The notes under the pieces were generated by a model, which saw nothing but the letters and a program-made list of their open reading frames with translations, did no database searches and had not been told where the DNA came from. From Dokdonella fugitiva (GTDB taxonomy: Bacteria; Pseudomonadota; Gammaproteobacteria; Xanthomonadales; Rhodanobacteraceae), in the NCBI RefSeq assembly GCF_004342425.1, contig NZ_SLWQ01000005.1, positions 253,476 to 285,475 on the forward strand: a stretch of 32,000 nt of DNA. Reading direction: 5' to 3'. Shown piece by piece: positions 916 to 17,534 of the stretch. The translations under genes were made by a program, and so were the position numbers. Within the stretch, counting starts at the first letter, position 1. Every line of letters starts with the position of its first letter.

Positions 916-999
916 GGGCCCAGGGCCGAGTGCGCGCTGCGGGAGCGGCGGAAGCCGCGATGCTCTCGAACGAGCACGGCAGCCGCCGCCGATGCGGGC

Positions 1000-2436: not shown

Positions 2437-2445
2437 GGGCGGCTC

Positions 2446-4374
2446 CTACTTCTGGACCATGTATTCGGGCGAATTGAAGATGAGGTACAGCGCGGTGTGG
2501 ATGCGCCACAGCCGCCAGTCGCTCACGCCTTCGGTCCAGCTCGAATTGATGCGGTTGAGGTACGTCAGCAGGGTCTGGCGCATGAACGGCGACATCTGCC
2601 CGGACATGAAGCGCTTGTTGTACGCATCCACGAGGCGATCGGCCGGATCGGCCGCGCCGCCGCTGCCGCTTCCGGCGAGCGCGAGGTCCTTGGCATGGTT
2701 GACCTTGACCTCGCCAAAGTCGTCGCCGGCGTCGCATACCCGGGCGACGTCGAAGTAGAACGCCCTGCCCTCGACGCTGTTGGCGGTGTTGGCGATCACG
2801 CTCTCGGTCTGCAGCTGGAACTCCGGGCCGACGAGGTTGCCCTGCGTCATCTCGCCCGGCGGCAGGTAGCTCGGCTTGAAGAAGTTGAAGACGGAGAACG
2901 CGTTCATCGGCGCCTGCGCGACGCCCGAGCCGTACTGGTCGTCGTCGGTGCCCCATGCGGTGGAGTAGCCGGCGTAGCGGTACGGCTGGTTCGCGTAGTG
3001 GTACTGCACCGTGCCCTGGGTGAAGTTGCGGCCGCAGGTGTGGCGCGCGTCCATCGCCCGCCAGAAATGTGTCAGCGCGATCAGCGGTTCGCGCAGCTTG
3101 CCGTACTTGTCGCTGTACAAGTGGCCGTAGCGCGCTTCCGGATCGAGCAGGATCGCCTGCGCGACCGCGCGCAACTGGTTCGGGCTCGTGCGGTTCGCGT
3201 TGAACACGTCGGCGACGCGCTTGACGTAGGCCGGGCTCGGATTGCTCGTGACGAGTCGCTGGATCAGCTGCCTGGCGATGAACGGCCCGACGTTCGGATG
3301 GCCGTAGATGTTGTCGAGCGCGAACTGCAGGTCGCTCGCCGCCGAGCCGCCGTCGGCGAGCACGCCGCCGGCCTGCGCGCCCGGATAGACGAGCAGCTGC
3401 TTCGCATGCATGTCGTTCGGGCCGGTGCCGTTGTCGTGGTAGCTCGGGTCGCCGTTGCGCGGATGGTTCGGCTGGTCGTACGGCGCCATCGGGTGCAACC
3501 AGTTCTCGCCGGTGGTGTAGTCGGGCCCGCAGTCGGTGAAGTTGTCGAACCCGTTGTCGTCGCAGTCGTACCAGTTCCAGCCGGTGAACACGTGCGCGAA
3601 CGCGGAGATGGTCGCCTGTGAGTAGGTCGGGATCGGATGGCCGCCCGCGTCGAGTTGCGGCGTGCCGTCCGGCTTGAGCATGACGAGGCCGATGCTGAAC
3701 AGCTGGTTGATCTCGCGCGCGTAGTTCTCGTCCGGATGGATGTTGCGCGTGGGATCGGCGCGCTGGTTGCCGCGCATGTTGAGGTAGGTGCCCATCGCGG
3801 GGCTCAGCGTCACCTGCTCGAGCAGGGCGCGATAGTTGCCGAATGCGTTAGCGACGAGGATGTCGTAGTAGTACGCGATGCTCTCCGGGAACTCGGCCAG
3901 CTGCGCGTTCTGGTCGGACACGACGAGGATCTCGCTCAGCGCGAAGGCCATGCGCTGGCGCAACTGGTCGGTATGGATGAGCGCGTTGTTGGCCGGGTCG
4001 GGGCCGCCGAGCGCCGCGAGGAACCACGCCTCGCGCCGGTTCTGGTGGCCGACCTGCTCGTGCAGCGTGTTGCCGACCCAGTCGAGATAATCCATCTCGA
4101 AGGTCGGCGGCGCGGCGAACTGTTCGTTCAGCCAGGCCTGGTAGCCGATCGCGCGCAGATGCGCGATGTCGGCGTCGGTCGGCCCGAACGTCGCCTGCGC
4201 GAGGAAGCGCGAGGCGTCCGCGTCATTCGTCGGCCCGGCGGCCGCGCCTTCGAAACCGTCGCGGAGCATGGCATCGGGCGAGTGCGATTGCGCGAACGCG
4301 GACGCTCCCGACGCCGTGCACACGAGCATCACCGCGAGGCGCAACAGCCTGCGGACATTCCTTGCTGGCAGCAT
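2446..4374 (-). CDS. DUF1800 family secreted protein
   Basis: 642-aa ORF with a signal peptide (LAVMLVCTASGASAFA) and a DENYAREINQLFSIG motif. It forms the canonical DUF1800-DUF1501 gene pair. Confidence 0.8.
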   Translation of the reverse strand: MLPARNVRRLLRLAVMLVCTASGASAFAQSHSPDAMLRDGFEGAAAGPTNDADASRFLAQATFGPTDADIAHLRAIGYQAWLNEQFAAPPTFEMDYLDWVGNTLHEQVGHQNRREAWFLAALGGPDPANNALIHTDQLRQRMAFALSEILVVSDQNAQLAEFPESIAYYYDILVANAFGNYRALLEQVTLSPAMGTYLNMRGNQRADPTRNIHPDENYAREINQLFSIGLVMLKPDGTPQLDAGGHPIPTYSQATISAFAHVFTGWNWYDCDDNGFDNFTDCGPDYTTGENWLHPMAPYDQPNHPRNGDPSYHDNGTGPNDMHAKQLLVYPGAQAGGVLADGGSAASDLQFALDNIYGHPNVGPFIARQLIQRLVTSNPSPAYVKRVADVFNANRTSPNQLRAVAQAILLDPEARYGHLYSDKYGKLREPLIALTHFWRAMDARHTCGRNFTQGTVQYHYANQPYRYAGYSTAWGTDDDQYGSGVAQAPMNAFSVFNFFKPSYLPPGEMTQGNLVGPEFQLQTESVIANTANSVEGRAFYFDVARVCDAGDDFGEVKVNHAKDLALAGSGSGGAADPADRLVDAYNKRFMSGQMSPFMRQTLLTYLNRINSSWTEGVSDWRLWRIHTALYLIFNSPEYMVQK

Positions 4375-4683
4375 ATGGACTCCCTCTCTCCCCAGGTCCC
4401 GCGAGAGCGTCGCGGCGGCGGCGGGACTCTACCGGGCCGCACTGGCGCCGGAGGGTGCGCCATGCCACATTCCGACTGCCGACCCGCTCACAGGTCGTTT
4501 CCGGCGGATAATCGGTCAAGCGGCGTCATTTTCGAGCCCGCCCGCAGCCGACAATGGCCGCACGAGCGGCGCAGCCCGCTTGCACGCCGCGTTTTTCTCC
4601 CTGGCATGCCGCATGTGTTTTCATGGATTGCGCGCTTGCGGATATGCTAGACCTCGCAACATCCCCCACCCTGAGATTCCAAG

Positions 4684-5151
4684 ATGCCCAATATCGCCAC
4701 GTTCCTCAAAGCCGAAATCACACGCCTCGCACGCAAGGAAATCCGCGGTGAAATCGGTACGCTGCGCAAGACGAGCGCCGCGCACCGCCGCGACATTGCC
4801 GCGCTCAAGCGCGAAATCGCGAACCTGCAGCGGCAGAACAAGCAGCTCTCCAAGCGCGCCGCCGGCGCCTCCCAGGCCGCGACCGCCGAGTCCGGCGAAG
4901 GCGAAGTGAGGAACCGTTTCTCGGCCAAGGGCTTCAAGTCGATGCGCGCGCGCCTCGGCCTCTCGGCCGACCAACTCGCCACCCTGCTCGGCGCGAGCAT
5001 GCAGTCGGTCTACAACTGGGAACACGGCAAGACCGTCCCGCGCGCCAACCAGGTCGCCGCCATCGCCGCGCTGCGCACGATCGGCAAGAAGGAAGCGATG
5101 CGACGCCTCGAAGAGGCACAGGCGGCGGAGAAGCCGTCGCGCAAGCGCTGA
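4684..5151 (+). CDS. XRE-like helix-turn-helix DNA-binding protein with N-terminal coiled-coil region
   Basis: 155-aa ORF. The C-terminal segment LGLSADQLATLLGASMQSVYNWEHGKTVP is a classic HTH_XRE pattern. It sits outside the island repeat, so it is probably core genome. Confidence 0.6.
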   Translation: MPNIATFLKAEITRLARKEIRGEIGTLRKTSAAHRRDIAALKREIANLQRQNKQLSKRAAGASQAATAESGEGEVRNRFSAKGFKSMRARLGLSADQLATLLGASMQSVYNWEHGKTVPRANQVAAIAALRTIGKKEAMRRLEEAQAAEKPSRKR

Positions 5152-5324
5152 AGCAGTCACGCGCGTTCAAGCAGACGAGCAGCACGGCGCACGTCACCCT
5201 CGCGAAAGCGAAATTCCATCTGCATCGGCTTAGGACGTCAGATCCCCGCCGCCTGGGATGACGAAACGCGTTCACATGATCGGCCGTGGTCGACATGGAA
5301 ACGCAGCGCGCGTGCGTGCGCGAT

Positions 5325-5338
5325 GTGCCCGGACCCGG
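5325..5338. repeat. distal att direct repeat (copy of tRNA-Leu 3' end)
   Basis: GTGCCCGGACCCGG is identical to 14398-14411. It corresponds to the T-stem 3' strand, acceptor 3' strand, discriminator and first C of CCA. Confidence 0.7.
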
Positions 5339-5341
5339 CGT

Positions 5342-5437
5342 CGCATTGCGCACGCATGTTATTGATTTACAGAGCATCGGCATGCGACAACCCGAGCAGA
5401 TACCCCCGAAAGAACCCCCGCGCTTGGCGCGGGGCGA
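5342..5437. repeat. element-end module, copy L (CGCATT / TGATTTAC / GATACCCC / GAACCCC blocks plus GC hairpin)
   Basis: The four blocks sit at offsets 0, +21, +57 and +70, exactly as in copy M at 7825. They are followed by the hairpin CCCCGCGC-TTG-GCGCGGGG (5416-5434) and GCGGGGCGA. Confidence 0.6.
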
Positions 5438-5555
5438 GCCGCTCCGATGCGGCTCCAAAAGCTACCGTAGTTGGTAGATGCGTCTACCGGCGCTAGTAGC
5501 TCCGCTGTGCTCGAATTTCTCGGCGCCACTTCGGCGCGACGAGAGGATCGACACC

Positions 5556-5921
5556 ATGGACACGAGCACCGCCCTGCGCACCGCGATCGAGCTGCTGACC
5601 CAGGTCGCCGACCGAGCATGCGCGAACGGCGCGATTGCAGCCCTGCCGCCCGACTTCGACGACCGCTACGACGAGTTGACGGACGCGCTGAGCGGAATCG
5701 CTGGACAGCCGCGCGCCGCATGCTCTCAGCCACCGGCGGCCACCAAGTCGACCGCGGCACTCATGACCGCACGCGAAGTCATGGCAGATACGGCCATGAG
5801 CCGCAGCACGCTCTACCGCTTGATCCGCGAGGGGCGCTTTCCTGCGCCGGCGAAGGTCGGCACGATGTCGCGCTGGCACGCAACCGCGGTCGCGGATTGG
5901 AAGGCGCGGCTCTTCGCATGA
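5556..5921 (+). CDS. AlpA-family HTH regulator/excisionase-like protein with ~70-aa N-terminal extension
   Basis: The C-terminal MSRSTLYRLIREGRFPAPAKVGTMSRWHATAVADWK is the AlpA (CP4-57 regulatory) signature. GAGAGGA lies 8 nt upstream of ATG 5556. The stop overlaps the integrase ATG (ATGA at 5918-5921). An alternative start at 5763 would give a 52-aa AlpA-only protein. Confidence 0.7.
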   Translation: MDTSTALRTAIELLTQVADRACANGAIAALPPDFDDRYDELTDALSGIAGQPRAACSQPPAATKSTAALMTAREVMADTAMSRSTLYRLIREGRFPAPAKVGTMSRWHATAVADWKARLFA

Positions 5922-7132
5922 GCTGCCGCCAACTTCACCGACTCACCGCGCGCGCGGTCGCGACCGCGACGACGCCAGGATACATCGCCGACGGCGGCGG
6001 CCTGTATTTGCAGATTACCGCAAGCGGCGCGCGGAGTTGGGTCTTGCGGTTCATGTTGCGCGGTCGCGCGCGCGAAATGGGGCTCGGCTCGGCCACGATG
6101 GTTGGGCTCGCAGAGGCGCGCCAACGCGCGGCGGAGTGCCGACGCCAGCTCGCCGACGGCATCGATCCCATCGACGCCAGAGCGCGCGCACGCGCGCAGA
6201 ACGCTCACACCTTCGAGGCGGTCGCGACGGAGTACATCGATGCGAACGCAGGCGGATGGCGCAGCGCCAAACATGCCGATCAATGGCGGCAGTCGCTCGG
6301 GACGTACGCGTTCCCGGTCATCGGCCGCATGCCGGTTGCGGCGATCGACCTCGCGCACGTGCTCCGCGTGCTGGAGCCTGTCTGGACAACCAAGACAGAG
6401 ACGGCCACGCGCGTGCGCCAGCGCATCGAAGCCGTGCTCGACTACGCTGCGGTGAAGCGGTACCGGGCGGCGGGCAGCGAGAACCCGGCGCGCTGGCGCG
6501 GGCACCTGCAGCGGATCCTCCCCAAGCCGTCCCGCGTGTCGCGCGTGCGGCACATGAGCGCGCTGCACTACAGCGAACTGCCGGCGTTCATGGCCACGCT
6601 ACGCGCGCTGCCGCAGGGCCCGGCCGCGCTGGCGCTGCAGTTCACCATCCTGACCTGCGCGCGAACGGGCGAGGCGCGAGCGGCGACCATGGGCGAGATC
6701 GACGTCGACGCGGCGCTATGGACCGTGCCAGGGTCGCGCATGAAGGCGGGCAGGGAACACGTCGTCCCGCTCTCGGCCGCCGCGCTCGGCGTCGTGCGCG
6801 CGACCGGCGTCACGGAAGGGGCGCTGTTCACCTATCGGCGGGCGCCGATCAGCAACAACGCAATGCTCGCGCTCCTGCGCCGCATGGGTCGCGGCGACAT
6901 CACCGTGCACGGCTTCCGCTCGACCTTCAAGGACTGGGCGACCGAGCAGACCGACTTCCCGACCGACGCGATCGAGATCGCGTTGGCGCACACCGTCGGC
7001 GACAAGACCGAGCAGGCGTATCGGCGCGGCAACCTGCTGGCGAAGCGCCGCGCGCTCGCCGACGCCTGGGCGGCGTACTGTGGGAGCGTCACGCAGCCCG
7101 GGCGATCCCCACCGCGGGATATGCGGTGGTAG
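5918..7132 (+). CDS. int: tyrosine integrase (arm-binding DUF4102-type N-domain plus phage integrase catalytic domain)
   Basis: N-terminus LTARAV..PGYIADGGGLYLQI..SWVLRF..MGLGS, and catalytic motifs ARTGEAR, HGFRSTFKDW and EQAYRRG. Start chosen at ATG 5918. The 5471-5917 extension of the listed ORF overlaps alpA and is rejected. Confidence 0.9.
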   Translation: MSCRQLHRLTARAVATATTPGYIADGGGLYLQITASGARSWVLRFMLRGRAREMGLGSATMVGLAEARQRAAECRRQLADGIDPIDARARARAQNAHTFEAVATEYIDANAGGWRSAKHADQWRQSLGTYAFPVIGRMPVAAIDLAHVLRVLEPVWTTKTETATRVRQRIEAVLDYAAVKRYRAAGSENPARWRGHLQRILPKPSRVSRVRHMSALHYSELPAFMATLRALPQGPAALALQFTILTCARTGEARAATMGEIDVDAALWTVPGSRMKAGREHVVPLSAAALGVVRATGVTEGALFTYRRAPISNNAMLALLRRMGRGDITVHGFRSTFKDWATEQTDFPTDAIEIALAHTVGDKTEQAYRRGNLLAKRRALADAWAAYCGSVTQPGRSPPRDMRW

Positions 7133-7292
7133 CCTTTGGCCGCTCGCACCCGTCCACTACTGGAGAAGTGCCTTGACGACCAAGCCCGCACCGCCGCCGC
7201 CGCGGCAACCGCCTACCCCGCATCCTCGCAATCTGCCGCCATTTCGAACCGTCCCGCCGCCGCCACCGCCGTCGAAGCAGGGCTAGGCTCAA

Positions 7293-7775
7293 ATGCGACC
7301 CGACGAGATGCAGGCGCGAACCTCGACTGAGGCCCGAAACGACCTCATCTACCAGATCCGTTTGCACGAGCTTCACGCTACGCTCTTCCGACGGTTGAAA
7401 TGGTTGGCGTCGCTCGTCTCATTGCTTGCTGGTGCGTCGGCCGTGACGAGTTGGGTTCAATCGCAGCCCGGCGGCGTGTTTGTAGCGGGCTTGGTAGTCA
7501 CGATCACCGGCGTTCTCGACATCCTTGGGCGCTGGGAGGAGCGAGGCGCAGCACATCGCGCGTGGCGCCGCCAATTCGCCGAAATTCTTGCGGAAGCGCC
7601 TGTGCTATCGGACGAGGATCTGCATGCGGCCTACGTGCGGGCCGAGGCGAGCGTCGACGACACGCTACGAAGCTTGGAGCGCGTTGCGTACAACGACGCC
7701 ATGCGCTCGCTCGGCCTGTATACGCGGCGGGTGTGGGAATGGCCATCGAACTGGTTAATGCGCTTGTTCGTGTAG
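7293..7775 (+). CDS. small two-TM protein with SLATT-like architecture (tentative)
   Basis: 160 aa, built as an N-terminal helix, two adjacent TM helices (WLASLVSLLAGASAVTSWV and GVFVAGLVVTITGVLDILG) and a helical C-terminus. This layout resembles SLATT/DUF4231 2TM effectors. The assignment is by eye only. Confidence 0.5.
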   Translation: MRPDEMQARTSTEARNDLIYQIRLHELHATLFRRLKWLASLVSLLAGASAVTSWVQSQPGGVFVAGLVVTITGVLDILGRWEERGAAHRAWRRQFAEILAEAPVLSDEDLHAAYVRAEASVDDTLRSLERVAYNDAMRSLGLYTRRVWEWPSNWLMRLFV

Positions 7776-7824
7776 GGAGCGGGAGCATTGATCCAAAGCG
7801 ATATTCGATGCCGCATGCAGCACC

Positions 7825-7930
7825 CGCATTCACGCGCCAACGTGCTGATTTACCTGCCAGCTTGCTGACGCAAGATTGAGCGATACCCCGACCTGAACCC
7901 CAAAAAAGCGCCCCGCGTGAGGCGGGGCGA
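7825..7930. repeat. element-end module, copy M
   Basis: CGCATT 7825, TGATTTAC 7846, GATACCCC 7882 and GAACCCC 7895 have the same spacing as copy L. They are followed by a GC hairpin ending in GCGGGGCGA. Confidence 0.6.
7901..7929 (-). terminator. rho-independent terminator of the minus-strand island operon
   Basis: On the minus strand, stem CGCCCCGC / GCGGGGCG with a 5-nt loop is followed by TTTTTT (A-run 7902-7907 on plus). It lies 26 nt downstream of the 7955 stop. Confidence 0.75.
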
Positions 7931-7954
7931 ATGGCTGGCGCACGCGGGAACGGA

Positions 7955-8695
7955 TCACGCCGCGCGGATCTCGAGACTCTTCTTCGGCGCGAGCGCATCG
8001 ATCGCCTCGACGTACTGCGGGACGACCGTACGAAGCCACGCGAGACGCTCCTGCGCTTCGCTGCGCAGCGTCGCCTCGCGCGGGTTGGCCCGTGCCATCG
8101 CGTTCGCCCAGGCGGTCGGCAGCGTCGCCGCGAGCACGCCGGGCAACGGCATGGGCGAACGCATGAGCGCGACGAGCGCGCGCGGATGCTTCCCGTCCAT
8201 AAGTTCGTGCGCGAGCCTTGCCTGCGCATCGGGCGACATCGCGCGCCAGAGGTCGCGCACCTCGCGATCCTCCGCCGCACCGACGGCATCGTTCATCGCC
8301 AGCGGCGGCGGCGAGCATGATTTCGCGTCGGCCTCCGCGAACTCGTCGATGCGCTTCATCGCCTCTACGCGCGCGCCCTCGATCTCGTTGCGAGCCGCCG
8401 CGGCGATGGCTCGACGCTGCTCGGCCTTCCATGCGTCGGTGCGCGTGGCGTCGGCCTCCACGTCGGCAATGCGCTTCGCGGCGCTCGCGGCGATGCGCAG
8501 CACCTTCGCTGCGTGGTTGAACTCGGCGTGGTCCGTATTGGCATGAAGCGGCGCGCGCAGCGCAACAACGCCGCCAGTCGCAAGGCGGAGAGCGGATATC
8601 CCGTCGGGCTCGCCCCGCTCGACCTGGCCCCAGATCGGGGTAACGCCGAGTTCGGAAAAGCTCTCCGCAAAGCGGAGTGATTCTGCGTGGTTCAT
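7955..8695 (-). CDS. hypothetical protein, 246 aa, Ala/Arg-rich and largely helical
   Basis: Last ORF of the island operon. Its ATG overlaps the upstream stop (ATGA at 8692-8695) and it is followed by a terminator. No motif recognised. Confidence 0.55.
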   Translation of the reverse strand: MNHAESLRFAESFSELGVTPIWGQVERGEPDGISALRLATGGVVALRAPLHANTDHAEFNHAAKVLRIAASAAKRIADVEADATRTDAWKAEQRRAIAAAARNEIEGARVEAMKRIDEFAEADAKSCSPPPLAMNDAVGAAEDREVRDLWRAMSPDAQARLAHELMDGKHPRALVALMRSPMPLPGVLAATLPTAWANAMARANPREATLRSEAQERLAWLRTVVPQYVEAIDALAPKKSLEIRAA

Positions 8696-8901
8696 CGCGA
8701 GCCCCCGATGCGCTGCGGGTCGTGCTTCGGCGCGTTGCTGTGGTCGTGGTTTCCGCGGTCGTGCGCGGCGGCATTGCCGGTAGCGTCGACCGGGCGCATG
8801 CCCTCCGCGACGAGGCCGGCGCCGGGATTCGATGCGGGCGCGGCCGGCGCGTGCGCGGCGCTTGCGCCGTTCACGAGTGCCTGAGGATTGAAACCTTTCA
8901 T
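8692..8901 (-). CDS. hypothetical small low-complexity protein, 69 aa
   Basis: ATG at 8901 with AGAGG about 11 nt upstream, and a 4-nt overlap with the next gene. Composition is Ala/Pro/His-rich, so coding status is uncertain. Confidence 0.35.
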   Translation of the reverse strand: MKGFNPQALVNGASAAHAPAAPASNPGAGLVAEGMRPVDATGNAAAHDRGNHDHSNAPKHDPQRIGGSR

Positions 8902-8952
8902 GGGTGCGTGCCTCTTTTGTCGTTCGCCGCGAACCGCGCGGCAGCGGGTTTG

Positions 8953-9147
8953 CTATACAGGCCTCGCCGTGCGCGGCGTGAGCGTCAGCGCAATGATCGG
9001 CGCGCGTGGATTGGCCGCTTTGGCCGCGGCGAGGTCGCGCTCGCTTGGGGAGTACAGGACAACGGCGGACTGCGGCAGATCGCGAGTCGCGCGCACGCGC
9101 TCGAGGCGCCGCTCGATCCGCGCAAGCCGGGAGCGCATGCCCCTCAT
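8953..9147 (-). CDS. hypothetical small protein, 64 aa, N-terminal RLARIERRLE motif
   Basis: ATGA overlap with the upstream ORF at 9144-9147. Its N-terminal motif is shared with the neighbouring 100-aa ORF. Confidence 0.4.
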   Translation of the reverse strand: MRGMRSRLARIERRLERVRATRDLPQSAVVLYSPSERDLAAAKAANPRAPIIALTLTPRTARPV

Positions 9148-9446
9148 GCCGACGCCCTCCGCTCGAGGTCAGCGAGTTCGATCTGCTGATCGCGCGCCAG
9201 GCGCGACCACGTGTCGGCGTCGATCACGGCCGGCACGAGCAGGCCACGTCCGACGATGTGCCCGTCCGCCAGCCGGCGCGCCGACGCAGCGTGCGCGGGC
9301 ATGCCGCGCCGCTCGCACGCGGCGGCCTCGCGCAGCACGTCTCGGCGCACGCCTTCGGGCACAGGCGCGCATTCGGCGCCGCCATGTCGCGCGCGCTTCG
9401 CTTCCAGCGCGCCGAGTCGGCGAATCAGGTCACGACGCATCGGCAT
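9144..9446 (-). CDS. hypothetical protein, 100 aa, N-terminal RRLGALEAKR motif
   Basis: GGAGGGAA lies immediately upstream of ATG 9446. There is a 17-nt overlap with the upstream DUF5681 ORF. Confidence 0.45.
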   Translation of the reverse strand: MPMRRDLIRRLGALEAKRARHGGAECAPVPEGVRRDVLREAAACERRGMPAHAASARRLADGHIVGRGLLVPAVIDADTWSRLARDQQIELADLERRASA

Positions 9447-9852
9447 TTCCCTCCAGCTCGGCCAGCCGGCGCTCGATCTCGTCCGCCTGGCGAATGTCCG
9501 AGCAACCGCGCAGTGCGGCGATCAGCTCGGCCGCGACGTCGGGCGCCAGTTCGCCAGCCGCGGCGGCGCGCACGAGCGCCTGCGCGGCCTCTGCCGGCGT
9601 CGTGGCGTTCGCAGCCGACTCGACCACGATGGGCTCGCGCGTCGCGCGCAGGGGCGGCGCCACGCGCGAGAGCACGAGCGCAATCGCGGCAACGTCGCCG
9701 TTGCGCGCGCGGTGAAGCAACGCCTGCAGGACGTCAGGCATCGCGCCATCGAACGCTTGGCGAATGCGCGAACGCTTGTCGACGATGCCGCGCGGCCGCC
9801 CCTTCGGGTTGCCAGACTGCCCCGGCTTGAAGGGCCTTCCACGCTCAGCCAT
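9430..9852 (-). CDS. DUF5681-type protein, candidate small-terminase-like (TerS-like)
   Basis: The N-terminal GRPFKPGQSGNPKGRPRG is the DUF5681 signature as I recall it, a family often seen at the terS position in phages and GTA-like elements. Start moved to ATG 9852 (GGAGCAGCAC upstream) rather than the listed GTG 9867. Confidence 0.6.
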   Translation of the reverse strand: MAERGRPFKPGQSGNPKGRPRGIVDKRSRIRQAFDGAMPDVLQALLHRARNGDVAAIALVLSRVAPPLRATREPIVVESAANATTPAEAAQALVRAAAAGELAPDVAAELIAALRGCSDIRQADEIERRLAELEGNADAS

Positions 9853-10474
9853 GTGCTGCTCCCTCACTGTTTATATCAGCGCCGCCCGGCGTGTGTTCGG
9901 CGTCACGGATTCCGTACGCTTCGCTAGCAGCGGCTCTGATCTCAGTCACTGTGTCGTAGAGGAGGCCGCCCTGAGCCATCAGGGAATCAAACTCAGCACG
10001 ATTGCGTGCGATCGCATCGCGCTGCTCCTGCGGTGCGCAGTCGAAAAAAACGTTCGCAGGAATTTCCTCGATAAACTTCGCATCGTGACGCTCAAACGCG
10101 ATTTCGGCTTCGGCTCGAACGTGATCTCCCACTGAGTATTTCGCGACAACAAACTCGTGTAGGGGTTCGCCTTCGCAGGCGCAAGGGAAGAATTTGCTCA
10201 GCATCACTATCGACGGCGATGCGAAGATCCTCTCGGGAACTAGCGCCATGGTTTGCCAAGCGCTGAATACGGCGGGCTTCTCCCGAACATCGAATGCATA
10301 CACCCCCCAACCGGTCTGGAGGTAACAAAGCAACAAGGCGACGCGGTCACAAGCATTCGACTGCCAGGGCCCGAGCCTGGACACGCGGTGTTCCAAGCGA
10401 TACGCGTTCCTCATCCTGCCCAAACCCCGAATGAAAACGGCGTTCCTCATGGCTTGCTGGTGCTGCTCAGACAT
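9845..10474 (-). CDS. orphan hypothetical protein, 209 aa, in a lower-GC patch (candidate accessory cargo)
   Basis: GGGAG lies 8 nt upstream of ATG 10474. The 60-nt lines at 10081, 10141 and 10201 count 53, 55 and 57% GC, against 73% for the line at 11041. No motif recognised. Confidence 0.6.
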   Translation of the reverse strand: MSEQHQQAMRNAVFIRGLGRMRNAYRLEHRVSRLGPWQSNACDRVALLLCYLQTGWGVYAFDVREKPAVFSAWQTMALVPERIFASPSIVMLSKFFPCACEGEPLHEFVVAKYSVGDHVRAEAEIAFERHDAKFIEEIPANVFFDCAPQEQRDAIARNRAEFDSLMAQGGLLYDTVTEIRAAASEAYGIRDAEHTPGGADINSEGAAHG

Positions 10475-10525
10475 CTCATCGGCTCCCGAAAACTGCGCTG
10501 CTCCAAATCCCCATACCCCTAGGGA

Positions 10526-10594
10526 TTAATTCGGCGCACATGCGCGCGCCGATTAACCCAATGCGCCTAACCCGTATTCGGCGCATTCGGCGCA
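10526..10594. promoter_or_regulatory. iteron-like repeat cluster / palindromic operator at the 3' end of the ATPase gene (candidate ori)
   Basis: ATTCGGCGCA occurs at 10529-10538, 10576-10585 and 10585-10594. There is an imperfect palindrome TTAATTCGGCGC (10526-10537) / GCGCCGATTAA (10546-10556). ATGCGC recurs three times, and the palindrome CCCTAGGG lies at 10517-10524. Confidence 0.45.
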
Positions 10595-11763
10595 TGCGCC
10601 CGGATCGCGTACCGCCGCCGCACCTTTCGCTGCGGGGTCAGGTACTCCTCGCGCACGAGCTCGCCGGAATCCTCGAGGCGCGCCAGGGCGGCCCAGAAAC
10701 GCGGCTTGGCCCGCAGCGCCGAAGGGAAGCCGGGGAGGTCTACGGCGGTCGTGTACGTCGTGGCGCAGCCGGTGCGGTGGCAGCCGATGACGTCGCCGCG
10801 CACGATGGCTGCGCGCAGGCAGTGCAGCAGCAACAAGTCGTCGCCGCCGGTGGCGTCCCCGGCAGCCGCCGGCAGCGGGACGCCTGCCGCGTTGACGCGA
10901 AGCGGGATCGAGTCAACGCGGCGGCACAGGTTCGCCTTCTCGTGCCGCAGCTCGAGCGCGCCGTCGCTGTCGACGAGCGCGAGGCGCGAGCGCGCGCTGT
11001 TGTGCCACGCGGTGCTTCCGCTGAACGTGTTTCCGCTCGCCCCGTGCCGCGCAGCGTGCTTGTCGACGTGCACGAGCAACAACACCGCGGCGCCGGCGTC
11101 GCGCCCGATCTTGGCGAGCGCGCGGACGAACGTGCGGACCTGCCGGCGATCGTTCTCGTTCGCGTCGTACGCGTCGGATGCATTGTCGATCACGACGAGC
11201 GCCGCATCGGCGGCCGCATCGCGAACCTGGTGCATCGTCGAGGTCGGCTCGAGCACGGCACGCCCGGCGATGACGAGTTCGTACGCGAGCGCGGTTGCAT
11301 CGGCCTCGGTTCCGTCGAGGATGATGAGACTGCGCGCGACGGCGAACGCGTCGAGCTGGTAGGCGTCGCAGATCGCGCGCAGGCGCCAGCGGACAAGCTC
11401 GCCGGGATCTTCCAGCGAGACGAACACCGCGCGCCCCTGCGCGCACGCGAGTGAGGCCCACGGCACGCCGGCGGCAACATGGGCAGCGATCGCGAGCGCG
11501 AGCGTGCTCTTGCCCGTGCCGCCGTGCCCGCCGAGCAGCGTGACGTGTCCGCGCGGAACGATGCGGTCGACGACGAACTCGGGCGCCTGCAGGGTCGCGG
11601 CGGCGAGATCGCCCACCTCGACGACGCGCAGCGATGCCTCGACGGTCATCGCCGGCGCCGGGCGCAACCATCGGCGCGCATTGTCGAGCCGAGCGAGGTC
11701 GCGTTCAGACAGTTCGTCGATGTCGCGCAGGCGTCGCGGCAACAACTCGGGAGCGGCGCTCAT
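10567..11763 (-). CDS. RepA/AAA_25-type (RecA-fold) replicative ATPase/helicase-like protein
   Basis: Walker A GGHGGTGKST and Walker B-like ALVVIDNASD. Start set at ATG 11763, which overlaps the upstream stop (ATGA). The Arg-rich 11764-12042 extension is rejected. Confidence 0.8.
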   Translation of the reverse strand: MSAAPELLPRRLRDIDELSERDLARLDNARRWLRPAPAMTVEASLRVVEVGDLAAATLQAPEFVVDRIVPRGHVTLLGGHGGTGKSTLALAIAAHVAAGVPWASLACAQGRAVFVSLEDPGELVRWRLRAICDAYQLDAFAVARSLIILDGTEADATALAYELVIAGRAVLEPTSTMHQVRDAAADAALVVIDNASDAYDANENDRRQVRTFVRALAKIGRDAGAAVLLLVHVDKHAARHGASGNTFSGSTAWHNSARSRLALVDSDGALELRHEKANLCRRVDSIPLRVNAAGVPLPAAAGDATGGDDLLLLHCLRAAIVRGDVIGCHRTGCATTYTTAVDLPGFPSALRAKPRFWAALARLEDSGELVREEYLTPQRKVRRRYAIRAHAPNAPNTG

Positions 11764-12194
11764 GCGGTCAGTACCTCGCGCGCGCATTGGATGCGGTCGA
11801 TCGCCTCGCGCAGCCGCGCGATGTCGTCGGCGTCGAACAAGGCACCATCTTCGATGGCCTTGGCAGCCGCGAGCGCGACGGCGCTCTCGCGTGCGAGCAC
11901 GCGCACCGCCGCGGACCAATCCGCATCGCGCGCAGCGCGGCGGCGCTCCTCTCGCGCCATTGGCGAGTGATCGCCCAGGCGGGCAGCGAAGAGGTCCGCG
12001 ACGCTGAGCCCGACAGCGCCCACGACGTCGGCGACCGGGCATCCACTGAAACAGTGGGCCAACACGCGTCCGTCATCACCGACGGCGATCGACAGCGAGG
12101 CGGTGCGATCGTCATGCGCCGGGCAACGCGCTGTCCAGCCGTTACCGCTGCGGCGGACGCCGATCAAGCGCGACAGCAGTGCGTCGACGCTCAA
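11760..12194 (-). CDS. primase-type zinc-finger protein (CHC2-like), no catalytic primase domain evident
   Basis: The motif WTARCPAHDDRTASLSI..HCFSGC is a typical primase/helicase-loader zinc ribbon. A TTG start overlaps the upstream stop (TTGA at 12191-12194). Confidence 0.65.
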   Translation of the reverse strand: MSVDALLSRLIGVRRSGNGWTARCPAHDDRTASLSIAVGDDGRVLAHCFSGCPVADVVGAVGLSVADLFAARLGDHSPMAREERRRAARDADWSAAVRVLARESAVALAAAKAIEDGALFDADDIARLREAIDRIQCAREVLTA

Positions 12195-12628
12195 GCGAAG
12201 TGCCTGCGGCTCTCGCGGCGATCCGCGACGCGCCGATGGTCAGCGAGGGCGCGCAGCAGCCCGTCAGCCGCGGCCTTCCACTCGGGGATGCGCGCGAGGC
12301 CACGGTCCGACCCCAGCCGGCGCACGGCAACGCGAAGCTGCGTCAGGCGGCGCGACGACGCCGGATAGCGCAGCGCGCTGAGCGCGTCGCATATGGTGCG
12401 CATGCTCTCGACATCGGCGGCGATGACCGCGGCGCGCAATGCGTCGCGCACGTCGGAGAGCAGGGCGGCAACGGCGCGATCGGTCTTGCCGTTCGGGAGA
12501 CGGACATGCGCAGCCAGGGCGACAGAGGCGCGGCCGAGCTCTTGCGACGCGCGGTGATGCGCGAACAGCGCGCGAAACGCGGCCTCGAGCGCTGCCGCGC
12601 GATCTGCGGAGCGAAGCGGCGCGCTCAT
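12191..12628 (-). CDS. hypothetical helical protein, 145 aa
   Basis: Start set at ATG 12628, overlapping the alpA stop (ATGA at 12625-12628). No motif recognised. Confidence 0.5.
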   Translation of the reverse strand: MSAPLRSADRAAALEAAFRALFAHHRASQELGRASVALAAHVRLPNGKTDRAVAALLSDVRDALRAAVIAADVESMRTICDALSALRYPASSRRLTQLRVAVRRLGSDRGLARIPEWKAAADGLLRALADHRRVADRRESRRHFA

Positions 12629-12849
12629 GCGGCCGCCTTGCGTGCACGCGACGCCGCAACGCGGTCGGCGATCCATGCACACACTTCCGCTTCACGCCAA
12701 GCGGCGCACCGCTCCGAAATCTTGATCGGTGCCGGAAACTTGCGCTGCGCGACGAGCGCGTAGGTCTGTGACCGGCCCAAGCCGGTGAGGTGCATGACCT
12801 CGCGCAGCCGAATGAGGCGCTGGGTGGCAAGCTCTTGCATGGGGCGCAC
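12625..12849 (-). CDS. alpA: AlpA-family transcriptional regulator/excisionase-like protein
   Basis: 74 aa. LIRLREVMHLTGLGRSQTYALVAQRKFPAPIKISERCAAWREAEVCAWI is the AlpA signature. Confidence 0.8.
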   Translation of the reverse strand: MRPMQELATQRLIRLREVMHLTGLGRSQTYALVAQRKFPAPIKISERCAAWREAEVCAWIADRVAASRARKAAA

Positions 12850-12888
12850 CTTGTTGGGATCAGGTGCGTCCAGAATCGTCCGGCGCGC

Positions 12889-13018
12889 GTTGACACTCCA
12901 TCGCGCCGAATCAGCGGCCTTGCAGCTATCGGATCAACGACTTGCGCTGTAGCTCGGCACGCGCGATCTGCGCAAGGCCTTGATTTTCCGTGTTGACAGT
13001 CCTCAACGATCCGTCAAC
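12889..13018. promoter_or_regulatory. repeated GTTGACA(C/G)TCC boxes in the int-alpA intergenic region (candidate operator)
   Basis: GTTGACACTCC at 12889-12899 and GTTGACAGTCC at 12992-13002 match at 10 of 11 positions. An inverted GTCAAC lies at 13013-18, 15 nt from the second box. Confidence 0.35.
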
Positions 13019-14225
13019 GCGCTGCGCGCATGGGCACGACGTTCGAACCCGAGCGCAGCGCATCGAGGTAGTCGGCCCACGCCTGCATCATCCTGATGCG
13101 CTCCTTGAGATACATCGCGCGGTTGTAGACGGCGCGCACCTTGTTTCGCTCGGCGTGCGCGAGCTGGCGCTCGATCACGTCAGGCGACCACCCCATTTCG
13201 TTCAAACGCGTCGAGGCCATCGCGCGGAACCCGTGCGCCGTCATCGTGTCGCCGTCGTAGCCGAGCCGGCGCAGAGCAGCCGTGATGGTGTTCTCGCTCA
13301 TGGGCCGGTCAGGCGTCCGCAAGCTCGGGAACACGTAGCGGCGCGATCCCGTGAGCGGTTGAATCGCACGCAGAATCGCGACCGCCTGCGTAGCGAGCGG
13401 CACCACGTGCCCCTCGCGCATCTTCATCCGGCTGGCCGGGATGCGCCATTCGTGCGCGTCGAGGTCGACCTCCGCCCACTCCATCGCTCGCAGCTCGCCG
13501 GGACGCACGAACAGCAGCGCCGAAAGCTTGAGCGCAGCGGCCGTCGTCGGCTGTCCGATGTAGCCGTCGAGCGCGCGGAGCAGCTCGGCGACCTTCGAGG
13601 GATCCGTTATCGCAGCATGCGATGTCGCGACGACGGGCGCGAGCGCGCCGCGTAGGTCGGCAGTCGGGTCGCGCATCGCGCGTCCGGTCGCGACCGCGTA
13701 GCGGAATACCTGGCTCGCCTTCTGGCGCGCGCGATGCGCGGTCTCGATCGTCCCAGCGGACTCGATGCGCCGGAGTGCGGCCAGCACATCCGGCGCGGCG
13801 ATCGCCGCAATGGGCATCGCGTGAATCGGCGCGAGCAACCCGAGCAGCCATTGCGCCTTCGCGCGCGTGACCGGCGCGAGCGCGTCCTTCTGCCGCGCGA
13901 GCCACTCGTCGGCGATCGCCCGAAAGCTTTCCGCTGCCCCGACTCGAGCGGCGACCTTGCGAGCGCGCCGCGCCTGCGATGGGTCGACACCCTCGCGCAA
14001 CAATGCGCGCGCCTCGTCGCGACGCTGGCGCGCTTCGGCGAGCGAGACCTCGGGGTATGCGCCGAACGAGAGCAGCAGCTCCTTTCCGGCGAAACGGTAC
14101 TTCATGCGCCACAGACGCGAGCCGCTCTGCCTCACGAGCAGAAACAGGCCGCCACCGTCGAACAGCTTCCCAGGTGCCGCGCTCTTGATCGCGAGCGCCG
14201 TCAGCTTTCCCATGCGCGCCGTCAC
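13014..14225 (-). CDS. int: P4/CP4-57-type tyrosine integrase
   Basis: N-terminus KLTALAIKSAAPGKLFDGGGLFLLV..RLWRMKYRFAGKE..FGAYPEVSLAEAR, and catalytic motifs VRPGELR, HGFRAMAST and RAVYNRA. It directly abuts the tRNA-Leu 3' end. The listed start is GTG 14225, with an alternative ATG at 14213. Confidence 0.9.
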   Translation of the reverse strand: MTARMGKLTALAIKSAAPGKLFDGGGLFLLVRQSGSRLWRMKYRFAGKELLLSFGAYPEVSLAEARQRRDEARALLREGVDPSQARRARKVAARVGAAESFRAIADEWLARQKDALAPVTRAKAQWLLGLLAPIHAMPIAAIAAPDVLAALRRIESAGTIETAHRARQKASQVFRYAVATGRAMRDPTADLRGALAPVVATSHAAITDPSKVAELLRALDGYIGQPTTAAALKLSALLFVRPGELRAMEWAEVDLDAHEWRIPASRMKMREGHVVPLATQAVAILRAIQPLTGSRRYVFPSLRTPDRPMSENTITAALRRLGYDGDTMTAHGFRAMASTRLNEMGWSPDVIERQLAHAERNKVRAVYNRAMYLKERIRMMQAWADYLDALRSGSNVVPMRAAR

Positions 14226-14229
14226 GTGC

Positions 14230-14281
14230 GTACCCCCGCAGACAGGGCCAACGCAGGCCCGATACCCCGGACGATACCCCC
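14230..14281. repeat. three (G/A)TACCCC boxes between int and the tRNA (candidate integrase arm-type sites)
   Basis: GTACCCCC at 14230-14237, GATACCCC at 14261-14268 and GATACCCC at 14273-14280. They have the same orientation as the boxes at 5399 and 7882. Confidence 0.4.
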
Positions 14282-14395
14282 AAGGCTCGCCGGATTCAAC
14301 CGAACGCTCGCGGACCCTACTGGACGAAATACCGCTCGATTTATGGCCTTTTCACGCAGACGCCGGACGTTGGCGGACCGTTGTGGAGGCTGCTT

Positions 14396-14482
14396 TGGTG
14401 CCCGGACCCGGACTCGAACCGGGATGACCTTGCGGTCGAGGGATTTTAAGTCCCTTGCGGCTACCGATTTCGCCATCCGGGC
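14396..14482 (-). tRNA. tRNA-Leu (anticodon UAA), type II with long variable arm
   Basis: The reverse complement folds as a cloverleaf. Acceptor is GCCCGGA/TCCGGGC, anticodon arm AGGGA-CTTAAAA-TCCCT, T arm CCCGG-TTCGAGT-CCGGG, and CCA is encoded. Confidence 0.9.
14398..14411. repeat. proximal att direct repeat within the tRNA-Leu 3' end
   Basis: GTGCCCGGACCCGG, identical to 5325-5338. Confidence 0.7.
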
Positions 14483-14997: not shown

Positions 14998-15579
14998 TCA
15001 GCGCTGCTGGCGCAGGATCGGCCACGCCGCGCGCACGTACAGCATCCCCGACCAGATCGTGAGTCCCGCCGCGATCACCAGCAGCCCCTCGCCGACGTGG
15101 AACAGGCGCAGGCCTTCGAGGTCGTGCTGGTAGAGCAGCACGACGATCGCGACGATCTGCATCGCGGTCTTGATCTTGCCGATCGCCGCCACGCGTACGG
15201 TCGCGCGCTCGCCGATCTCCGCCATCCATTCGCGCAGTGCCGAGATGCTGATCTCGCGCCCGACGATGACCGCGCTGGTGACCGCCATCAGCGGCGTCGG
15301 GTTTTCCTGCACGAGCAGGAACAGCGTGATCGCGACCATGAGCTTGTCGGCGACCGGGTCGAGGAACGCGCCGAACGCCGAACCCATGTTCCAGCGCCGG
15401 GCGACCCAGCCGTCGAGCCAGTCGGTGATCGCGGCCGCGATGAAGATGAGCGCGGCGGCGACGTTGGCGCCGTGGAACGGCGCGTAGAACGCGATCACCA
15501 TCACCGGCAGGAGCAGGATGCGGAACAGGGTAAGCGCGGTCGGGATCGTGATATGCATCGGTCGGTCGGGTGGTGTCAT
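14998..15579 (-). CDS. pgsA: CDP-diacylglycerol--glycerol-3-phosphate 3-phosphatidyltransferase
   Basis: IPTALTLFRILLLP and DWLDGWVARRWN..FGAFLDPVADK form the CDP-alcohol phosphatidyltransferase motif. ATG 15579 overlaps the uvrC stop (ATGA). ATG 15558 (MHITIPT) aligns better with the E. coli N-terminus. Confidence 0.9.
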   Translation of the reverse strand: MTPPDRPMHITIPTALTLFRILLLPVMVIAFYAPFHGANVAAALIFIAAAITDWLDGWVARRWNMGSAFGAFLDPVADKLMVAITLFLLVQENPTPLMAVTSAVIVGREISISALREWMAEIGERATVRVAAIGKIKTAMQIVAIVVLLYQHDLEGLRLFHVGEGLLVIAAGLTIWSGMLYVRAAWPILRQQR

Positions 15580-17534
15580 CCGTGGAAGGTCGCATAAATG
15601 CGTTCGGCCAGCTGTCTACTGATCCCGCTGACCTGCATGAGTTCCTCGACGCCGGCCTTCGACAGGCCGCCGAGCCCGCCGAAGTGCTTGAGCAGCGCCG
15701 CGCGCCGGCGCGCGCCGACGCCGGCGATTTCCTCCAGCGTACTCGCTTCGCGTGCCTTCTCGCGACGCCCGCGATGGCCGGTGATGGCGAACCGGTGCGC
15801 CTCGTCGCGCACCGCCTGCACGAGGTGCGAGGCGGGCGACTCCGGACCGGGGAACAGGGTGCGGCCGGACCGGCCGACGATCAGGGTTTCGTCGCCGGCG
15901 CGGCGCGCCTCGCCCTTGGCGACGCCGACCACGGGCACGCCCTCGAGGCCGAGTTCGTTGAGGACGTCGATCGCCTGCTGCAGCTGGCCCTTGCCGCCGT
16001 CGATGAGCAGCAGGTCCGGCAGGCGCGCCATCAGCGGTGGTTTGGCCGGCGCGGTCGACGGCGGCGCTTCGGGCGGGCCCTGCCCGGCATCGCCTGACGG
16101 TTCCTGCGCGAGCGCGGCCGACGCTGCCGCCGATTCGCGCCGGAAGCGCCGCTGCAGCGCCTGGCGCATCGCCGCGTAGTCGTCGCCGGGCGTGATGCCA
16201 GTGATGTTGAAGCGGCGATACTGCGACTTCTCCGGCCCTTCGGGACCGAACACGACGCACGAGGCGACCGTCGCCTCGCCCATCGTGTGGCTGATGTCGA
16301 AGCACTCGATGCGTTGCGGCGTCTCGTCCAGCTCGAGCAGGTCACGCAGCGCCTCGAAGCGGTTCAGCAGGGTCTGCCGGCTCGCCAGGCGCGAGGCGAG
16401 CGCCGCGTCCGCGTTGCGCCGCGCGAGGTCGAGGAAGCGCGCGCGATCGCTGCGCACGCTCGCCTTGATCTCGACCGCGTGGCCGGCGTGGCCGGCGAGC
16501 GCTTCGGCGAGCGGCGCAGCGTCGTCGGGCGCATGGCTCACGATCAGTTCGGCGGGCACCGGCCGTTCGAGGTAGTACTGCGCGATGAACGAACCGAGGA
16601 TCGCCGCTTCGTCGGTGGCGCCGGCGAGGCGCGGGAAGAAGTCACGCGAGCCGAGGCTGACGCCGTTGCGGAAGAACAGCACGCTGACGCAGGCGATGCC
16701 GCCGCGGATCGCGCAGGCGATCACGTCCATGTCCGCGCTGGCGCCCTGCACGTAGTGGCGCGCCTGCACGCGCTTGACCGCGGCGATCTGGTCGCGCACG
16801 ACCGCGGCGCGCTCGAACGCGAGGTCGGCGCTGAGTCGTTCCATCGTCGCGACCAGCTCGTCCATGACCGCGCCGGCGCGGCCGTCGAGGAACATCTCGG
16901 CGTGGCGCACGTCGGCGGCGTAGTCTTCCGGCGCGACGAGGCCGACGCACGGCGCCGTGCAGCGACCGATCTGGTGCTGCAGGCAGGGCCGCGAGCGGTT
17001 GCGGAAATAGCTGTCCTCGCAGTTGCGGATGCGGAACAGCTTCTGGATGAGGTCCAGGCTCTCGCGCACCGCGCCCGCGCTCGGGAACGGCCCGAAATAG
17101 CGCCCCTTGCCGCTGCGCGCGCCGCGATGGAACGCGAGCCGCGGGAAGCGCTCGGACGGCGGCGCCCCGGGGTCGAGCGCCGCGCGCGTGGGATCGGCGG
17201 TGAGATGGATGTACGGATAGCTCTTGTCGTCGCGCAGCACGATGTTGTAGCGCGGCTTCAGGCTCTTGATCAGCTGCGCCTCGAGCAGCAGGGCCTCGGC
17301 TTCGGTGCGCGTGACCGTGGTCTCCATGCGCGCGATCTGGCCGACCATCGCGGCGATGCGCGGGTCCAACTTCGGCTTGAGGAAATAGCTGCCGACGCGC
17401 TTCTTCAGGTTGCCGGCCTTGCCGACGTAGAGCAGCTCGTCGTCGGCGTCGAACATGCGGTAGACGCCGGGCGCGCCGGTCAGGGTACGAACGAAGGTCT
17501 TGCCGTCGAACGGTGGTGCGGAAACGGATGACAT
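15576..17534 (-). CDS. uvrC: excinuclease ABC subunit C
   Basis: 652 aa with an N-terminal GIY-YIG region (GVYRMFDADDELLYVGKAGNLKKRVGSYF) and a C-terminal HhH region. It carries a Pro/Ala-rich low-complexity insert. Confidence 0.92.
   Translation of the reverse strand: MSSVSAPPFDGKTFVRTLTGAPGVYRMFDADDELLYVGKAGNLKKRVGSYFLKPKLDPRIAAMVGQIARMETTVTRTEAEALLLEAQLIKSLKPRYNIVLRDDKSYPYIHLTADPTRAALDPGAPPSERFPRLAFHRGARSGKGRYFGPFPSAGAVRESLDLIQKLFRIRNCEDSYFRNRSRPCLQHQIGRCTAPCVGLVAPEDYAADVRHAEMFLDGRAGAVMDELVATMERLSADLAFERAAVVRDQIAAVKRVQARHYVQGASADMDVIACAIRGGIACVSVLFFRNGVSLGSRDFFPRLAGATDEAAILGSFIAQYYLERPVPAELIVSHAPDDAAPLAEALAGHAGHAVEIKASVRSDRARFLDLARRNADAALASRLASRQTLLNRFEALRDLLELDETPQRIECFDISHTMGEATVASCVVFGPEGPEKSQYRRFNITGITPGDDYAAMRQALQRRFRRESAAASAALAQEPSGDAGQGPPEAPPSTAPAKPPLMARLPDLLLIDGGKGQLQQAIDVLNELGLEGVPVVGVAKGEARRAGDETLIVGRSGRTLFPGPESPASHLVQAVRDEAHRFAITGHRGRREKAREASTLEEIAGVGARRRAALLKHFGGLGGLSKAGVEELMQVSGISRQLAERIYATFHG

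Follow-up and report, generated by a model that had tools for sequence, protein, structure and literature searches.

What occupies the 9 kb between a tRNA-Leu(UAA) gene and a helix-turn-helix (HTH) gene of Dokdonella fugitiva, how did it arrive there, and what kind of element is it? The locus lies in contig NZ_SLWQ01000005.1, of which a stretch of 32,000 nucleotides (hereafter the window) was analyzed, and the segment in question carries two different genes for P4-type tyrosine integrases, int1 next to the tRNA and int2 at the far end. The original prediction, made from the letters alone, was that of an island inserted in the 3' end of the tRNA gene and bounded by a 14-bp direct repeat. We find that the insertion is a clean presence/absence polymorphism within the species, with its breakpoints at this repeat. 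Taken as a whole, the observations are best explained, with a high degree of confidence, by segment 5339-14411 being a mobile element that integrated site-specifically into the 3' end of tRNA-Leu(UAA) in one D. fugitiva lineage.

A clean insertion polymorphism at tRNA-Leu(UAA)

The predicted repeat was borne out by an exact search. The 14-mer GTGCCCGGACCCGG has exactly two copies in the window, at 5325-5338 and 14398-14411, both on the plus strand, and the latter copy is the 3' end of tRNA-Leu(UAA). Because the bases flanking the two copies differ, the length of the repeat is exactly 14 bp. In tRNA orientation the core reads CCGGGTCCGGGCAC; it takes in the 3' strands of the T-stem and of the acceptor stem, the discriminator A and, of the CCA, the first C. 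No further match of at least 11 nt to the 3' part of the tRNA was present elsewhere in the whole window, island interior included, and by chance one would expect 0.004-0.008 direct 14-mer matches between the final 50 nt of the tRNA and the 14.4 kb lying 3' of it.

To the left of the repeat stands an Xre-type HTH gene (HTH155, 4684-5151), and an exact-protein look-up showed that 64 blocks of the collection contain its product. Eight contigs with this gene are island-free (L087, NCBI GCA_014138295.1; L088-L091, L093, L094 and L096), and a ninth, L095, stops short of the site. In all eight the gene order is DUF1501-DUF1800-HTH155-tRNALeu-tRNACys-tRNAGly, which seven continue into pgsA-uvrC; in the window, ARAGORN likewise places tRNA-Cys and then tRNA-Gly beside tRNA-Leu, with pgsA (14998-15579) and uvrC (15576-17534) further out. 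Both flanks are 99.5-99.9% identical between the window and the eight contigs in blastn, and the alignments break exactly at window positions 5338 and 14398, sharing just the 14 bp; the two copies are therefore a true attL/attR pair. The empty-site sequence equals window 1-5338 joined to 14412 onward via one copy of the 14-mer (junction in L087: gcgtgcgcgatGTGCCCGGACCCGGactcgaaccggg), so that the inserted segment, 5339 to 14411, measures 9,073 bp with one repeat copy counted. Thus the empty site that had been foreseen on joining the left flank to the body of the tRNA does exist, and the boundary had been placed correctly to the base. The relatives had been named as Burkholderia, which was mistaken: the host is D. 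fugitiva, of the Rhodanobacteraceae in the Lysobacterales, and the exact AAA_25, int2 and orf246 proteins of the island are annotated so at NCBI. This error has no effect on the empty-site argument.

Integration regenerates a complete tRNA-Leu and also provides an encoded CCA, the last two bases of the tRNA in the occupied site (the CA of CCA) coming from island DNA. Entry would have been by a tyrosine-recombinase crossover inside the 14-bp core common to attP and attB. Furthermore, the G+C content at third codon positions (GC3) is 0.80-0.85 in the island genes versus 0.90-0.93 in the flanking genes. Beyond the window, int1 has been recorded on a single further contig, Logan SRR8872472_906, and the same holds for int2. 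This contig matches the window at 100% identity over 13.7 kb; it probably belongs to the same strain. A scan of 185k species-representative genomes with pgsA returned a best match of 85% identity, and none of these genomes shares the DNA 3' of tRNA-Leu.

Two results weigh against a mobile element. Neither an excised or circular form nor a virion-borne copy was found (IMG/VR), and the attP junction, which in tRNA orientation would read GCGACG-CCGGGTCCGGGCAC-CAAAGCAG, is absent from IMG/VR. The repaired attB would read GAGT-CCGGGTCCGGGCAC-ATCGCG in the same orientation.

Several further features of the locus were recorded. The tRNA-Leu(UAA) gene of the empty site (L087 10636-10655) ends in GGGCAC followed by ATCGCG, with its CCA incomplete and an ARAGORN length of 85 nt; in the occupied site (window 14396-14399) GGGCAC is followed by CA, and the tRNA measures 87 nt. 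The CCA is encoded in the adjacent tRNA-Cys and tRNA-Gly and also in the tRNA-Leu of the nearest other species (L007), and the 'empty' tRNA-Leu site may itself be the scar of an older event. The HTH gene at 4684-5151 is Xre/CI-like and is kept in all conspecific contigs. In other genera the HTH gene, DUF1800 and DUF1501 are not located 3' of tRNA-Leu, and the DNA beyond the tRNA varies at the genus level. Besides the island, the sole alignment break against the conspecific contigs is a hypervariable intergenic microsatellite at window 23252-23410, consisting of (GGGAAT/GGGGAAT)n and then the inverted complement (ATTCCC)n; in conspecific contigs the array is shorter and its unit differs (GGGATTA in L089).

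Integrases, putative arm sites and a possible internal arm copy

A P4-type integrase directly 3' of tRNA-Leu, as originally predicted, was confirmed: int1 lies 183 bp from the tRNA end and is co-directional with it. The protein has Arm-DNA-bind_3, Phage_int_M and Phage_integrase domains, keeps the catalytic R-K-HxxR-H-Y residues, and is 34% identical to int2. Among its metagenomic relatives (52-66% identity), 45 of 80 follow a tRNA gene of the same direction at a distance below 700 bp. These tRNAs are of various kinds, and two of the relatives, L130 and L135, are found at tRNA-Leu(taa). The L130 integrase is 59% identical to int1 and occurs in the same pgsA-Gly-Cys-Leu(taa) context, where the tRNA end is repeated over 20 bp at a distance of 10.5 kb.

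Putative arm-type sites were recognized on both sides of the island. The motif GATACCCC, which is the plus-strand form of GGGGTATC-type sites, has four copies in the window against 0.31 expected, all of them in non-coding island DNA. Two stand in tandem between int1 and the tRNA, and in the left arm one copy at 5399 is followed by GAACCCC at 5412. In L130, the arm beside the integrase gene carries TGGGGGTCA three times, at 111, 123 and 152 nt from the tRNA, and the distal arm carries it twice, 12 bp apart and about 55-65 nt before the distal repeat; the putative arm-type sites of the window are laid out in the same way. Because the arm-type repeats in both outer arms are laid out as in L130, we assign the junctions to int1, which its canonical position directly after the tRNA and the putative sites in both arms make the very likely cognate recombinase.

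The arrangement at the left repeat had been described correctly in the original prediction as an HTH gene just outside and an alpA-int pair just inside, although this pair, alpA2-int2, turned out to be a second, different module and not the machinery of this site. int2 is 86% identical to P0122, an integrase encoded at the margin of a 53-kb prophage of D. fugitiva GCA_014138265.1. The sequence 140 bp upstream of this prophage gene, TGGCGGAGAGAGTG, is a tRNA-Ser 3' end in reverse complement. The same tRNA-Ser 14-mer forms the direct repeat of a related element, L120, whose integrase (44% identical to int2) is located far from its tRNA-Ser(tga) and reads inward. In the island, the best match to a tRNA-Ser core for int2 has 3 mismatches, which is chance level. 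Homology between int2 and the prophage starts at the int2 start codon, and the att-proximal DNA was therefore not inherited with int2; in relatives of int2, moreover, int and alpA are convergent, unlike the alpA2-int2 operon, in which the end of alpA2 overlaps the start of int2. These comparisons indicate that int2 is probably a captured gene, apparently an orphan passenger that stems from a tRNA-Ser-linked lineage. As int2 is intact, with a complete set of catalytic R-K-HxxR-H-Y residues, it may nevertheless have a function. That alpA2-int2 constitutes a working prophage-type integrase with its AlpA, which would act in trans on a helper prophage by forcing or timing its excision, or would confer a second integration specificity, appears improbable.

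The arrangement of the int2 lineage, tRNA-distal, inward-reading and paired with a 14-bp copy of the tRNA-Ser end, is the reverse of that of the int1 type. The coordinates recorded for this arrangement are 9847-9860 and 10001-11296 in L121, and 254-267 and 9598-9687 in L120.

The island also contains what appears to be a vestigial internal copy of the left arm. TGATTTAC is exact in both arm copies, the motifs are collinear at a constant offset of 2483 nt, and the window contains exactly two copies of the pair GATACCCC-N5-GAACCCC, against an expectation of zero. The terminator at 7909-7929 is a strong, minus-strand one directly behind orf246, with the motif pair just to its left on the plus strand; the left hairpin (5416-5434) resembles this terminator, yet there is no minus-strand gene for it to terminate. 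At the internal copy, the core is represented by no more than a degenerate remnant, GCACCCG (7820-7826). On account of this terminator and arm copy at 7846-7929 the distal block is taken as a later addition: the sequence suggests that the element originally extended to just beyond the terminator of orf246 and that the distal 2.5 kb (orf160, int2 and alpA2) were added subsequently. The block would have been put between the old arm (7846-7929) and the present P' arm (5339-5436), gained either when tandem elements fused or when cargo was inserted and a duplication arose. Against this stands the alignment of the whole arm, left versus internal, which scores 53 versus 47 for the best unrelated window and is thus marginally above background; the composite history is therefore suggestive, resting on the exact motif pair and the collinearity.

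Within the distal block, orf160 is 80.6% identical to a 160-aa open reading frame (ORF) in the same slot of the related elements L117-L119 (L117 13180-13659, L118 5911-6390). There, a PIN-domain gene follows orf160, and the core genes are just 39-61% identical to those of the window. On this comparison orf160 looks like a recently exchanged cargo gene, and the sister elements support a general cargo slot at the distal position. The predicted transmembrane segments of orf160 span about residues 36-79.

Gene content and mode of life

The features of the island are collected in Table 1. The alpA2, int2 and orf160 genes are on the plus strand, convergent with the minus-strand genes from int1 to orf246.

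Table 1 Features of the island and its attachment sites (window coordinates).
Feature	Position	Strand	Evidence
attR, distal copy of the 14-bp core	5325-5338		exact motif search and blastn
Putative functional P' arm	5339-5436		TGATTTAC 5363; GATACCCC-N5-GAACCCC pair 5399-5418; terminator-like hairpin 5416-5434
alpA2, 121 aa, AlpA/excisionase domain with 60-aa N-terminal extension	5556-5921	+	PF05930; PHROG and TIGR01764 excisionase
int2, second intact P4-type integrase, 404 aa	5918-7132	+	family matches, catalytic residues
orf160, putative cargo protein, two predicted transmembrane segments	7293-7775	+	hydropathy; PHROG families of unknown function
Putative vestigial internal P' arm	7846-7929		TGATTTAC 7846; GATACCCC-N5-GAACCCC 7882-7901; minus-strand terminator 7909-7929
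orf246, final gene of conserved operon, family marker	7955-8695	-	homologues 39% identical in L117-L120
Three small ORFs, 98, 64 and 69 aa, without family matches (including defence models)	8692-9440	-	gene calls
DUF5681 protein, 140 aa, candidate small-terminase-like packaging subunit	9430-9852	-	PF18932 3.3e-11
orf209	9845-10474	-	weak PHROG match, family of unknown function
Candidate replication origin	10529-10593		three exact GCGCCGAAT copies and one inverted near-copy
AAA_25 (RepA/DnaB-like) ATPase, 398 aa, replication protein	10567-11763	-	PF13481 7.6e-34; PHROG primase/helicase families
Zn-ribbon primase-like protein, 144 aa	11760-12194	-	phrog_6088 DNA primase 1.4e-14; N-terminal match TIGR01391 dnaG
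orf145, no family match (Pfam, PHROG)	12191-12628	-	gene call in L001
alpA1, 71-aa AlpA-family regulator/excisionase	12625-12840	-	PF05930 3.8e-17; PHROG 'excisionase and transcriptional regulator'
int1, 399-aa P4-type tyrosine integrase	13014-14213	-	Pfam, PHROG and NCBIfam matches
Putative P arm, between int1 start and tRNA	14230-14280		tandem GATACCCC at 14261 and 14273; GTACCCCC at about 14230
attL, tRNA-proximal copy of the 14-bp core	14398-14411		exact motif search and blastn
tRNA-Leu(UAA), integration target	14396-14482	-	ARAGORN tRNA-Leu(taa); comparison with empty site

Searches of the island proteins against Pfam, PHROG and NCBIfam gave no match to capsid, tail, large terminase or lysis proteins, and none to a relaxase, a coupling protein or a type IV secretion system (T4SS). 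A prophage was rejected on the former result (Pfam, PHROG), and an integrative conjugative or mobilisable element on the latter. Defence-system models had no match among the cargo ORFs, and no homologue of the known interference genes of phage-inducible chromosomal islands (PICIs) was found with PHROG and the defence models. A P4-like satellite was likewise rejected: the psu, delta, sid, epsilon and alpha components of the P4-like model (SatelliteFinder, PMC10085698) have no Pfam or PHROG match in the island, and only int and alpA are common to both.

The putative replication module combines the Zn-ribbon primase-like protein, which has a 51% identical homologue in L117, with the AAA_25 ATPase, many relatives of which are fused to PriCT or Prim-Pol domains. 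Copies of GCGCCGAAT, an iteron-like repeat, are clustered at and just behind the AAA_25 stop codon (10529-10593), and PICIs keep their origin behind pri-rep, which is where the cluster of the island sits (PMC6092414). GCGCCGAAT is also present at 12903-12911, in the int1-alpA1 intergenic region, and of its six exact copies in the window the island contains five. These copies are candidate origin or regulator sites. The GC minimum of the window (0.57, at 10001-10500) falls within orf209, a gene that is absent from the sister elements L117-L120.

A role in packaging is suggested by the DUF5681 gene. In IMG/VR phage contigs carrying this gene (L208-L268), the next ORF, about 100 nt on, encodes the terminase large subunit in nine of ten tested, which suggests, solely from gene position in phages, that DUF5681 (PF18932) is a small terminase subunit (TerS). 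The gene is conserved across the element family, without a large terminase. At the end of the operon, orf246 belongs to a small family with 167 cluster representatives at E<1e-3 among 1.84 billion proteins, and its AlphaFold2 model (predicted local distance difference test score of 94) consists of long helical hairpins and, at the N-terminus, a small beta unit.

This family was traced through sister elements in other tRNA genes: L117-L119 in tRNA-Lys (42-bp repeat, 8.3 kb) and L120 in tRNA-Ser (14-bp repeat, 9.3 kb). Their core order is Zn-ribbon/PriCT, AAA_25, DUF5681, two to three small ORFs and a protein of 242-246 aa, followed by a cargo slot before the distal junction. A more distant relative in tRNA-Met, L115, has only the int1-type integrase, alpA and AAA_25 in common with the island. 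All of these elements have a single integrase each, of varying type and with varying tRNA target, and no second integrase module, unlike the island.

Because DUF5681 genes are located directly upstream of terminase large-subunit genes in phages, we lean, by a modest degree, towards regarding the element as a PICI-like phage satellite with a TerS-like subunit of its own. A helper phage would induce alpA1; int1 together with AlpA would excise the element, which would then replicate, and the TerS-like protein would direct the large terminase of the helper to package it. Several results count against a satellite of this type. No helper phage was identified, the AAA_25 protein and orf246 have no close relative in IMG/VR (the orf246 alignments being too variable for a pattern scan), the DUF5681 profile has no significant match among PDB sequences, and Foldseek found no match to the orf246 fold in PDB or BFVD. 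Furthermore, under the SatelliteFinder rules int, alpA and pri-rep alone amount to an ambiguous 'Type C PICI' (PMC10085698). By its integrase domains and residues, tRNA-end repeat, empty attB and putative arm repeats, the element is a member of the tRNA-targeting islands with P4-family integrases. Judged by its genes it would work like a Gram-negative PICI, but we do not file it as one.

Competing explanations and wider meaning

Two other accounts of the junctions have to be weighed against integration by int1. A chance 14-bp match in an ancestral region that was deleted in other strains might be considered, given the shortness of a 14-bp repeat and the high GC content of the DNA; however, apart from the low expectation for such a match, the breakpoints fall at the repeat to the base in eight contigs, the repeat is a tRNA end beside a tRNA-targeting integrase, arm sites are present in both arms, and GC3 differs from the flanks. 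The L087 empty-site sequence and the blastn breakpoints refute this account, to which we attach next to no probability. The other possibility is that int2, alone or with int1, made the junctions, its tRNA-distal inward position being native to its lineage. The int2-type integrases of L120 and L121 indeed read inward and are set 140-184 bp in from a distal, 14-bp copy of a tRNA 3' end, the catalytic residues of int2 are all kept, and the island core is likewise 14 bp long. Yet the relatives of int2 (the 86% identical prophage integrase and, at 44%, that of L120) have their site in the tRNA-Ser end CACTCTCTCCGCCA, a sequence without relation to the tRNA-Leu core and absent from the island; the arm-type repeats in both arms match the int1-type layout of L130; and both the onset of prophage homology at the int2 start codon and the convergent int and alpA genes of the relatives, which have no alpA-int operon, count against this possibility as well. 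A part of int2 in the junctions is hence highly unlikely.

Concerning the history of the element, it is possible, though in our view less probable, that the island is a tandem pair. One unit would be a 6.6-kb satellite with int1 (about 7820-14397), the other the remaining stump (5339 to about 7819) of an element that formerly had ends of its own, and a deletion through the core in the middle would have fused the two. This would account for the terminator, the GATACCCC-N5-GAACCCC pair and the copy of TGATTTAC right after orf246, all collinear with the left arm, as well as for the degenerate core GCACCCG at 7820-7826 and for the left hairpin that has no gene to terminate. On the other hand, the distal unit has neither a P arm nor a second int1-type integrase, every empty-site contig lacks the whole 9.07 kb, with no intermediate form found, and orf160 occupies the same slot in the single tRNA-Lys elements; cargo insertion with local duplication therefore explains the data equally well. 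As for its mode of life, the element might be no satellite, being instead a self-replicating integrative element (plasmid-like or mobilisable), one with another transfer route, or immobile. Consistent with this are the lack of recognized capsid-remodelling or interference genes, of an identified helper and of any find in IMG/VR, and the combination of int, alpA and primase is common to several kinds of element (PMC10085698). We nevertheless consider it rather unlikely: no relaxase, coupling protein or T4SS was matched, the DUF5681 gene, found in the terS position in phages, occurs family-wide without a large terminase, and the size of 8-9 kb and the gene order fit Gram-negative PICIs (PMC6092414). 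A PICI-like satellite integrated by int1 thus remains our preferred reading of the island.

The element can be placed among known systems by its likenesses and differences. CP4-57 is a tRNA-type island at ssrA with the P4-family integrase IntA and AlpA. With islands of this type the present one shares an integrase gene co-directional and 3' of the tRNA, a repeat of the tRNA end, AlpA and a regenerated tRNA; it differs in that its core is only 14 bp long, covering the 3' strand of the acceptor and T-stem, and in that its attB has no encoded CCA, which the island supplies. Some pathogenicity islands of Staphylococcus (SaPIs) encode a TerS of their own (summarized in PMC6092414) and redirect packaging by it. 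The island likewise has a candidate TerS-like gene (DUF5681) without a large terminase; it has no sequence relationship to SaPIs, and its regulator is of the AlpA type and not a Stl repressor. Satellite P4 uses leuX in Enterobacteria, and the integrase family, tRNA-Leu target, AlpA/Vis-type regulator, length of about 10 kb and cargo hotspot near one end recur in the island. The Gram-negative PICIs of the EcCICFT073 type (Fillol-Salom et al. 2018, PMC6092414) have co-directional int and alpA, pri/rep with repeats and a small operon, and are about 9 kb long without virion genes, all as in the island. In contrast to them, the island has no recognized homologues of capsid-morphogenesis genes, Ppi or Rpp, has AAA_25 with a separate Zn-ribbon protein, and carries a second integrase.

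The element is thus of an ordinary kind and does not overturn current understanding; what it adds to that kind are an apparently orphan second integrase, a putative vestigial internal arm and the lead from DUF5681 to TerS. The locus provides a base-resolved, recent integration polymorphism in a little-studied soil genus. The second integrase poses a testable question of cross-talk between satellite and prophage: if alpA2-int2 were functional, satellites would capture the recombination modules of their helpers in the cargo slot. DUF5681, in turn, gains a testable role as a small terminase subunit. Together with its sisters, the island defines a small, uncharacterized family of elements of 8-9 kb, found in Lysobacterales and relatives, whose members exchange integrases and tRNA targets. 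With its Zn-ribbon/PriCT, AAA_25, DUF5681 and 246-aa proteins, this family can reasonably be put forward as a candidate new lineage of satellites.

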